DNA from: Bispira polyomma
Taxonomy: Eukaryota
Reading direction: 5' to 3'
Assembly (NCBI GenBank): GCA_965649765.1
Contig: OZ287749.1
Location: forward strand, 88,536,001-88,600,000
Length of the DNA stretch: 64,000 nt
The notes beneath the pieces were generated by a model that worked only from the letters and a program-made list of their open reading frames with translations, made no database searches and had not been told where the DNA came from. Within the stretch, counting starts at the first letter, position 1; each line of letters starts with the position of its first letter. This document shows, one piece after another, positions 23,637 through 25,338 of this stretch. The translations under genes were made by a program, and so were the position numbers.

Positions 23637-25338
23637 ATGAACTAACTTTCTTTTATATTTCTTCTTGCAGGGGCTGCAATGCTTGCAAGCATAAAAAAGG
23701 TATAGTTATTTGATATGTCTGTCTTGTTAACAATTGACACACTGTGACTCGGTTTTGTGTTGAGAACCTGTTTATACATACCAAAATGTGACATATCACA
23801 CAGATTTGTAAATCACTTCAGTTCTCAATTTTGTTGAACGGGTGATATATTTAACAAATAATAAATATCCATATTGTGGTACTGTATGTATCTGAAAGTC
23901 CAACAAACTGATGAAAAGTCGAAAGATGTGAATGGTGGGATACCCTATGGATACAAAATTGTTGCTTTTATGGTGATCTATAAATTCAATGACAGATATT
24001 TTGTTGTCAAGTGTAATTGATATTGCTTCTAATTAATTACTGGACTTTTACAGAAATTAGAAGAAAGGAAGGATATATTAACTAGTGATGAATTTGGTAA
24101 GTGCCATGATCATTAAATATAATATATTTTTACACTGACTCTGAAATGGTAATCAGGTTTAAAATAAAATACTTTTATATCTAGGTTTTGCTGCCAGTTG
24201 ATTTTTTCTTTTCCAATAACATTTTACATAATTCTTGGCTTTTAGCATCACACTGTAAGAAATTGGTTGTACATATATTTGGCTTGTCTATATTAATATA
24301 AAATATGGAGATCTGTGTAATATTTCTTGTGTCAGTCTTGAAAATATATAAATGAATATAACACACATATTGTGCTATTTAGATTTGTTGGGTGATATCC
24401 TAATTGATGGTGAAGAATGTCCAATCGCTGCAAAGGAATTTGTCCAAAAATATGAAGCCAAGAAGAAAGGCAAGAGCAGGGAAAAGAGAGGTTTGTTACA
24501 ATCCAAAATTGATCAATCTTCAACTAAGGTATCCTACTAAATAAATGTCTATATAATAGGTATGTTAAAACTATCACATTTATCCATGACTAACATTCAT
24601 AGCTAGTTCTGTCCAAAGTGAAACCTTGAACGTTATCAATGTGCTTGTGCCTTCATTATGTCTTTGTGAATTATATAGGATGTTAATACTTACATGGCTA
24701 ATACATGTTCAGATGATGTATTTGTCCATATTTCCAAAATACTCACAACAGTAATAAAAATATAAATCCTAGCAGTATCAAAGTAACTTTGTACATTCAA
24801 TTATTAAGTACATTTCAATAAGAGTTTTGTTTGTTTACACACTGCAGAGGCAGACACATTACCAACGTTACTAAAAGTGTTTGACCATGACCTGTTACAT
24901 GTTAGATCATTATTATAAATTTTCTATCATACACAATCCTTGAGCTACATATTTTATACAATGTATAGATTTTTTTTTATGTATTATAATAGTATGAGTC
25001 ATACTATTATTATACATAAAGAAATACTTAAGAAAGTTTATCCAGCTTATTCTTGCATCTCCACTGTTATGGCTTATTTTTTGTCTGTAAACAATAATTG
25101 AATTTAAATATACTTGTACTGTTGCACCTAAGAACATATTTCAACTTGTGAATTGCCTGTCATGCCATGACACAAGATGTACTGAAAGGAATATTGGAGC
25201 TAAACTAAACTTGTCTGCCTAATTTCAGCCAAAAAATGTAGTGTCGAGTGCCGTAAAACAAGATGCTCTATAAGGGGACGGTGGGGATGTTGGTGCAGAT
25301 GTAGATGGGGTAAAGCCAAATGTACCTGTATTAAATAA
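23637..25338 (+). CDS. Spliced precursor of a cationic 8-Cys peptide (candidate antimicrobial or toxin-like peptide); exons ~23637-23699, 24054-24096, 24383-24490, 25229-25338
   Basis: GT-AG boundaries with compatible phases give ...KLEERKDILTSDEF/DLLGDILIDGEECPIAAKEFVQKYEAKKKGKSREKR/AKKCSVECRKTRCSIRGRWGCWCRCRWGKAKCTCIK*. AATAAA lies at 25475. The first exon is ambiguous because of a TAA at codon 3 of the signal-peptide frame. Confidence 0.7.

Follow-up and report, generated by a model that had tools for sequence, protein, structure and literature searches.

Within a 64,000-nucleotide stretch of Bispira polyomma DNA (contig OZ287749.1, positions 88,536,001 to 88,600,000; from here on the window, numbered from its first letter), we find one member of a gene family that is best read as new, lineage-specific and encoding predicted secreted peptides, and that would be neither BRICHOS, mytilin, macin nor canonical defensin. 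The family has 11 copies, nine of them in tandem, these counts being lower bounds. We favour, with moderate confidence, the reading that its members are cationic host-defence peptides, likely antimicrobials that target membranes. The logic of the predicted precursor is ordinary; what appears to be new is the eight-cysteine framework of the released peptide, together with a natural cut-down hairpin encoded by one of the copies.

The window gene consists of six coding exons at 22617-25338 on the forward strand, with a spliced frame of 143 amino acids whose 5' end was fixed through comparison with paralogues; the intron phases of the family are 0,1,0,1,1. An earlier note, made from the letters of the window alone, had proposed exons at 24054-24096, 24383-24490 and 25229-25338, and their AG/GT edges and compatible phases are borne out. 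Its upstream model has to be replaced. The exon that it described as signal-like, with LSFIFLLAGAAMLAS, starts at an ATG (23637) that meets an in-frame TAA two codons on, and the letters that read LSFIFLL belong to the pyrimidine tract in the non-coding 3' end of intron 2 (23637-23670), where paralogues diverge and conservation starts only with the AG at 23669-23670. The real signal exon is coding exon 1 (22617-22697), which holds the ATG, the predicted signal peptide and the start of the propiece, ends in a phase 0 donor and has nine matches in the genome. Two small exons had been overlooked: exon 2 (23192-23252), with a first basic site, KVKR, at 23198-23209, and exon 3 (23671-23699; phase 1 to 0), 29 nucleotides long in nine of the ten copies that have it. 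The end given for exon 2 is that of the only open phase-1 GT, TAA|GTAAAA at 23253.

Exon 4 (24054-24096; phase 0 to 1) encodes propiece and measures 43 nucleotides in 10/10 copies. Exon 5 (24383-24490; 108 nucleotides) encodes an acidic core with an invariant GEECP, which holds its one cysteine, followed by a basic tail and an R-X-K-R site at 24478-24489; 14 of its columns are invariant across seven copies, the final K-R among them. As claimed earlier, this site reads REKR and lies at the exon boundary, its last base (24489) one base 5' of the donor. Exon 6 (25229-25338) encodes the entire predicted mature peptide and the stop, with the composition given in the note: 36 residues with 12 K/R, one E, three W and eight cysteines, a net charge of +11 and the spacing C-x3-C-x4-C-x7-C-x-C-x-C-x6-C-x-C. 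The AATAAA signal at 25475 is likewise present (25475-25480, 137 nucleotides 3' of the stop); one lies 56-149 nucleotides past the stop in all ten modelled copies, which in AT-rich DNA is weak evidence alone. On the 5' side, a TATA box at 22519-22525, about 95 nucleotides 5' of the ATG, lies in a conserved block, and G[GA]TATAAA[AG] recurs upstream in 10/10 copies possessing exon 1.

A search of the genome with the mature peptide gave nine matches, all on one strand of contig C2 in a stretch of about 209 kb, and searches with exons 5 and 1 added two dispersed copies (C2:95.58 Mb and C11:34.24 Mb). Ten of the 11 copies were modelled, five of them with the homologous upstream acceptor of the last exon. 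Six are intact with canonical donors; four are broken, through loss of the exon-5 acceptor, a frameshift in exon 3, a frameshift in exon 1, and, in the eleventh copy, loss of everything but the last exon, which contains a stop. The one remaining copy is that of the window, whose frame stays open only through a weaker exon-2 donor. Searches from divergent copies yielded only one further weak match, which was rejected (the C8 match, E 0.89, has neither the cysteine frame nor sister exons). The strict cysteine pattern did not occur in 40 order-3 Markov windows; as that pattern was taken from the finding itself, the eight further tandem last exons are the stronger evidence against chance. A pattern search with GATGYTGGTGCARR hit 106 places, mostly unrelated.

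In four copies of the same length, synonymous variants number 22 on 80 sites and replacement variants 12 on 299 (p=5e-8), and these copies are under purifying selection. Their introns are 11-17% different and their coding DNA 4-5%, which sets them apart both from haplotype duplicates and from neutral DNA. Between deeper copy pairs, the whole-frame ratio of replacement to synonymous rates (dN/dS) ranges from 0.43 to 1.21.

The predicted precursors have 123-144 residues (372-435 nucleotides of coding sequence). They begin with a signal of 17-19 residues (hydropathy peak 2.7-3.7; 3.11 over 11 residues in the window copy), presumably cleaved after V-T-C in the window copy, and continue with 16 residues ending in K-[VI]-K-R and a further 64-74 residues ending in R-X-K-R. 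In this last piece, an acidic core (-3 to -11) closes in the invariant GEECP and is followed by a basic tail of +5 to +9; in the window copy the two amount to -6 and +6, so that the segment from KVKR to REKR has a net charge of 0. Of the largely acidic propiece described earlier, therefore, the acidic core holds, whereas the piece as a whole is bipartite, with a basic tail and a second basic site. With the 5' end corrected, the evidence supports the proposed layout of signal, propiece, furin-type site and cationic disulfide-rich peptide, the named signal exon being wrong. Long mature peptides have 36-38 residues and charges of +7 to +12 (+4 to +12 across all seven open copies), and several end in Gly. 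A C-terminal Gly is a likely amidation signal. All eight cysteines are invariant in 7/7 aligned long peptides, and C-x3-C forms the first two in the nine modelled eight-cysteine exons. The GEECP cysteine of the propiece, invariant in 7/7 and apparently unpaired, could link precursors or aid folding.

The dispersed copy at C2:95.58 Mb is intact and encodes a different product. Its last exon has 8 nucleotides between the homologous acceptor and the codon of the fourth cysteine (C4), against 56-62 in the other nine copies; 51 nucleotides have been lost within the exon, with C1-C3 gone, C6 turned to Ser and C4, C5, C7 and C8 kept. The predicted product has 19 residues, a charge of +4, the spacing C-x-C-x8-C-x-C and a Gly end. 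A tree of the region spanning exons 2-5 (ten of the 11 copies, midpoint root only) has two clades, each with eight-cysteine copies (100/100); this short copy sits inside one of them, and this nesting makes the short form probably a derivative of an eight-cysteine parent.

The set of retained cysteines bears on the disulfide pairing. Retention of C4, C5, C7 and C8 alongside loss of C6 agrees with a hairpin where C4 faces C8, C5 faces C7 and C6 was bonded to the lost segment, thereby hinting at a C4-C8 rung. In both of two AlphaFold models, the C-terminal hairpin turns at W-G, with C5 facing C7 and C4 facing C8, at a mean local confidence score (pLDDT) of 55.7 and 57.6; the second also contains a helix over residues 5-10 plus two strands, which the other does not. 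A cystine knot (C1-C4, C2-C5, C3-C8) with a C6-C7 bond in the hairpin loop, in place of a helix stapled to a laddered hairpin, is a possibility to which we give rather little weight. Plant cyclotides share the 3-4-6/7-1 spacing of the first five cysteines and the Gly before C4, and a cyclotide cluster appears in the Atlas at 0.77, as a lead only. The knot pairing would, however, leave C6-C7 as the one intact bond of the short copy, which has in fact lost C6; the two models, low in confidence, pair C5 with C7 and C4 with C8 around the W-G turn; and the mature peptides have no match to PF03784. Knottins proper pair I-IV, II-V and III-VI (PMC4695807). A more specific proposal, which we put forward only tentatively, is that these are new annelid antimicrobials whose four-disulfide framework is as yet undescribed: a C-x3-C helix would be stapled to the first strand instead of to the last, and a BRICHOS-free, protegrin-like hairpin would have arisen from this family by one in-exon deletion and loss of the orphaned cysteine. 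If true, this would be a direct, testable case of hairpin antimicrobial peptides (AMPs) born from a larger defensin-like scaffold.

Other features of the copies stand beside these results. An AP-1-like heptamer at about 22492-22498, 25 nucleotides before the TATA box, is present in five of ten copies, as exact TGACTCA in the C11 copy, and is not found at that place in clade A. Five clade-A copies (L003-L007) have a second in-frame AG 15 nucleotides downstream in the last exon, splicing to which would remove the first cysteine and leave seven in the peptide. In the closest intact sister copy (C2:88421340-88435545), introns 1 and 5 have grown to 5.6 and 7.0 kb through insertions.

In the mechanism that we favour, the signal peptide would be removed and the precursor secreted, with the acidic core of the propiece masking the cationic peptide until a furin-type convertase cuts at K-[VI]-K-R and R-X-K-R. 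The released eight-cysteine peptide (36-38 residues, +7 to +12), in which a short N-terminal C-x3-C segment may be stapled to a Trp/Arg-rich beta-hairpin, would then attack microbial membranes; Gly-ending copies would be amidated, and the short copy would release a 19-residue two-disulfide hairpin. A last exon that follows a phase-1 intron and encodes nothing but the mature peptide, the tandem duplication and the pseudogenes all support this reading, this being the pattern described for alvinellacin genes (PMC4002450, PMC5431198), and polychaete AMPs are usually freed at dibasic or furin sites (PMC10745061). Several results weigh against it. No homologue in the sequence sets, Pfam or the PDB ties the family to any tested AMP, and the propiece is near neutral overall, not anionic. 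Both structural models are of low confidence; Foldseek returned 0 and 12 rows for them, none under E 3, and the VIA second-look fold comparison gave 0/14 at Z>=2. Diversifying selection on the mature region was not seen (pairwise dN/dS 0-0.72 in 8/8 pairs), unlike in many AMP families, and no NF-kB-type site was found in the 1.2 kb upstream of any of ten copies. Finally, scorpion short toxins (PF05294 and PF00451, 0.81-0.85) form the Atlas clusters with the most similar features, a lead only, which would suit a toxin equally well.

Alternatively, the peptides might be toxins, used in defence or predation against the ion channels or receptors of other animals and secreted in mucus or a gland, which we regard as unlikely. 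Besides the Atlas lead, the x-C-x6-C-x loop within the C-x10-C hairpin resembles spider four-disulfide knottins, and the precursor layout equals that of cysteine-rich toxins (PMC4558851). Against this, the Atlas scores stay below 0.9, with a recognition value of 2296 against a threshold of 2300, and none of seven peptides has a Pfam toxin match; the four close copies are little diversified, and the very high Arg, Lys and Trp content and the derived bare hairpin would suit membrane action better. We find it less likely still that the peptides serve outside defence, whether by inhibiting proteases, as signalling or neuro-active molecules, or as cationic cross-linkers within mucus, the tube or an egg coat. 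Hormones and structural peptides would be equally compatible with the pair of convertase sites, the possible amidation and the purifying selection, and the invariant, apparently unpaired cysteine of the propiece may count towards this reading; yet fast birth and death (4/11 broken) and the removal of half the mature peptide from an otherwise intact copy would be unusual for the ligand of a fixed receptor, and Pfam shows no inhibitor or hormone match.

The window copy itself is the sole exception to a donor, CAA|GTAA after exon 2, that is kept in nine of the ten copies having that exon. Its substitute has neither the -1 G nor the +5 G, and a DNA contig spanning 22798-23265 with no differences from the window confirms the letters at the changed site; the three runs compared here are contigs without splice joints and carry no information on expression. 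Skipping exon 2 alone breaks the frame, and skipping exons 2 and 3 jointly preserves it. We think it fairly likely that this copy works, and that it does so only through the weaker donor or through such joint skipping. There is a lesser but appreciable chance that it is a young pseudogene in a family that is itself alive, as its lone loss of the donor and the four broken sister copies would suggest. Speaking against decay, all six exons are open, the promoter block and the other nine splice sites are intact, and a frame survives the joint skipping; moreover, the private codon changes in exons 1, 4 and 5 number three synonymous to two replacement, like those of an intact sister (4:3) and unlike those of a broken one (2:9), in what are small numbers. 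Given the damaged donor, the best-supported functional members of the family are the paralogues.

The earlier expectation of a new family has held up in that no described family was matched in Pfam, the PDB, large sequence sets or literature motif searches. Pfam gave no family for 7/7 mature peptides and no match for exon 5 at E<=10, and the PDB sequences gave one chance antibody match (E 1.8) and none with a profile. In a set of 5.8 billion sequences, the mature alignment found 0/138 candidates among longer proteins and 0/6 near its length, and the propiece exon 0/788; 1.84 billion representatives gave none at E<=0.001. A 34-position profile detects only fairly close relatives. Queries of 35 residues give such searches little power, and their coverage did not extend to animal transcriptomes. 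Searches of the genome for BRICHOS and mollusc haemocyanin families found no match, but their controls were equally silent, so that absence is not implied. In the literature, four mature-peptide motifs were unreported and DGEECP appeared only in unrelated work; the family is undescribed in the titles and listings on annelid cysteine-rich families, with subscription papers and supplements beyond reach. The cysteine framework appears to match nothing searched, in a comparison that did not include the spacings of AmBRI-44a, periculin and paralithocin. Candidates from wider scans were discarded: in metagenomes, 2/326 stretches passed, both of which read a GC-rich bacterial gene in antisense and contain a stop, and in viruses 1/152, a chance LIDGEECP in a 364-residue phage frame.

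Elsewhere in the genome, haemoglobin linker genes and A/B-type extracellular globins lie at C7:48.56 Mb, C7:47.29 Mb and C2:75.76 Mb, with annelid giant haemoglobins as their best solved relatives. These genes make an annelid host likely; genes of this type reportedly occur outside annelids too. The window also holds a large element at 2178-12926 with an integrase core and a chromo domain (10354-11841; Pfam), whose other frames, without Pfam match, we take to resemble the protein-primed polymerase, protease and capsid of a Polinton/Maverick. A retroelement with reverse transcriptase and RNase H occupies 46050-50484 on the reverse strand, where overlapping frames resemble a DIRS-type tyrosine recombinase and gag. 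Pieces of a sulfatase gene (PF00884) at 30621-32460 lie in shifted frames and may be a decayed copy, and the stretch at 19160-20219, whose fragments we assume to resemble the reverse transcriptase of a long interspersed nuclear element, has a similar stretch at C2:88.34 Mb.

Annelids are known to have only a small number of antimicrobial peptide families. Here, six intact natural variants are accessible by peptide synthesis, and the presence of parent and truncated forms in one genome makes both the disulfide pairing and the route from eight cysteines to a hairpin directly testable. The bare hairpin is of a kind prized as an antibiotic lead, and a 2026 review counted only 25 natural beta-hairpin families (PMC13001179).

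The closest known systems are set out here by what they share with the family. The polychaete BRICHOS-AMPs (arenicin, alvinellacin, capitellacin and AmBRI-44a) have in common with it a likely annelid host, six coding exons of which the last, behind a phase-1 intron, encodes the peptide, tandem copies, dibasic release and cationic disulfide hairpin or four-disulfide products (PMC4002450, PMC5431198, PMC10745061, PMC11767717). The rule by which a cationic peptide follows a dibasic site in the last exon applies here too. Their propiece, however, carries a BRICHOS domain of about 100 residues, whereas that of the new family has 80-90 residues and one cysteine, exon 5 alone having been scanned against Pfam. 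Intron phases are 0,0,0,0,1 in BRICHOS-AMPs (PMC4002450), so that the five introns and the last phase agree and the pattern otherwise differs, and their coding length of 648 nucleotides exceeds that found here. The hairpin spacing of the short copy likewise departs from capitellacin, with cysteines at 5, 9, 14 and 18 (PMC10968102). The mussel MgCRP-I family is, like this one, an orphan secreted cysteine-rich family from genome mining, with a conserved pre-pro region, a K-R site, pseudogenes and cysteine-losing members, but it has a six-cysteine C-C-CC-C-C array, a propiece of about 15 residues, four exons and a hypervariable mature region (PMC4558851), against eight cysteines with no adjacent pair.

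The eight-cysteine peptides with a cysteine-stabilized alpha-beta fold (mytilins, myticins, MGD-1, nematode ABFs and chlorotoxin-type scorpion short toxins) are of similar size (34-40 residues) and equally rich in cysteine and strongly cationic. Their cysteine-stabilized helix motif, C-x3-C with C-x-C (PMC5116183), is present, and a pairing of C1-C5, C2-C6, C3-C7 and C4-C8 like theirs would be possible; the helix with two strands occurs in one of the two models only (pLDDT 57.6), with no fold match. Their third bond needs a cysteine before C-x3-C (C2-C6 in the reference), and here there is none; three alternating cysteines sit on the first strand, and neither Pfam nor the PDB gives a match. 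Mytilins further place the mature peptide between the signal and an anionic C-terminal extension, over four exons (PMC7168163), whereas the peptide is C-terminal here, in a gene of six coding exons, and macins, at 54-78 residues (PMC10608444), are longer than the 36-38 residues of these peptides, which have no match to the Pfam Macin family.

Cyclotides and spider four-disulfide knottins share the spacing of the first five cysteines noted above, but the peptides of this family are linear, far more cationic and from an animal, and the cysteine loss in the short copy argues against a knot. The short copy is closest to hairpins of the protegrin and theta-defensin type, with its cationic C-x-C...C-x-C product of 19 residues ending in Gly; it differs in its longer loop, in its phylum and in arising from an eight-cysteine parent by deletion. 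Protegrin-type precursors carry a cathelin domain, which the short copy lacks. Protegrins are amidated peptides of 16-18 residues with two disulfides (PMC13001179). Membership of the beta-hairpin AMP class calls for an experimental hairpin structure and antimicrobial activity; the predicted sequence of the short copy agrees with the profile of the class, namely 11-25 residues, a positive charge and at least two cysteine pairs at least three residues apart (PMC13001179).
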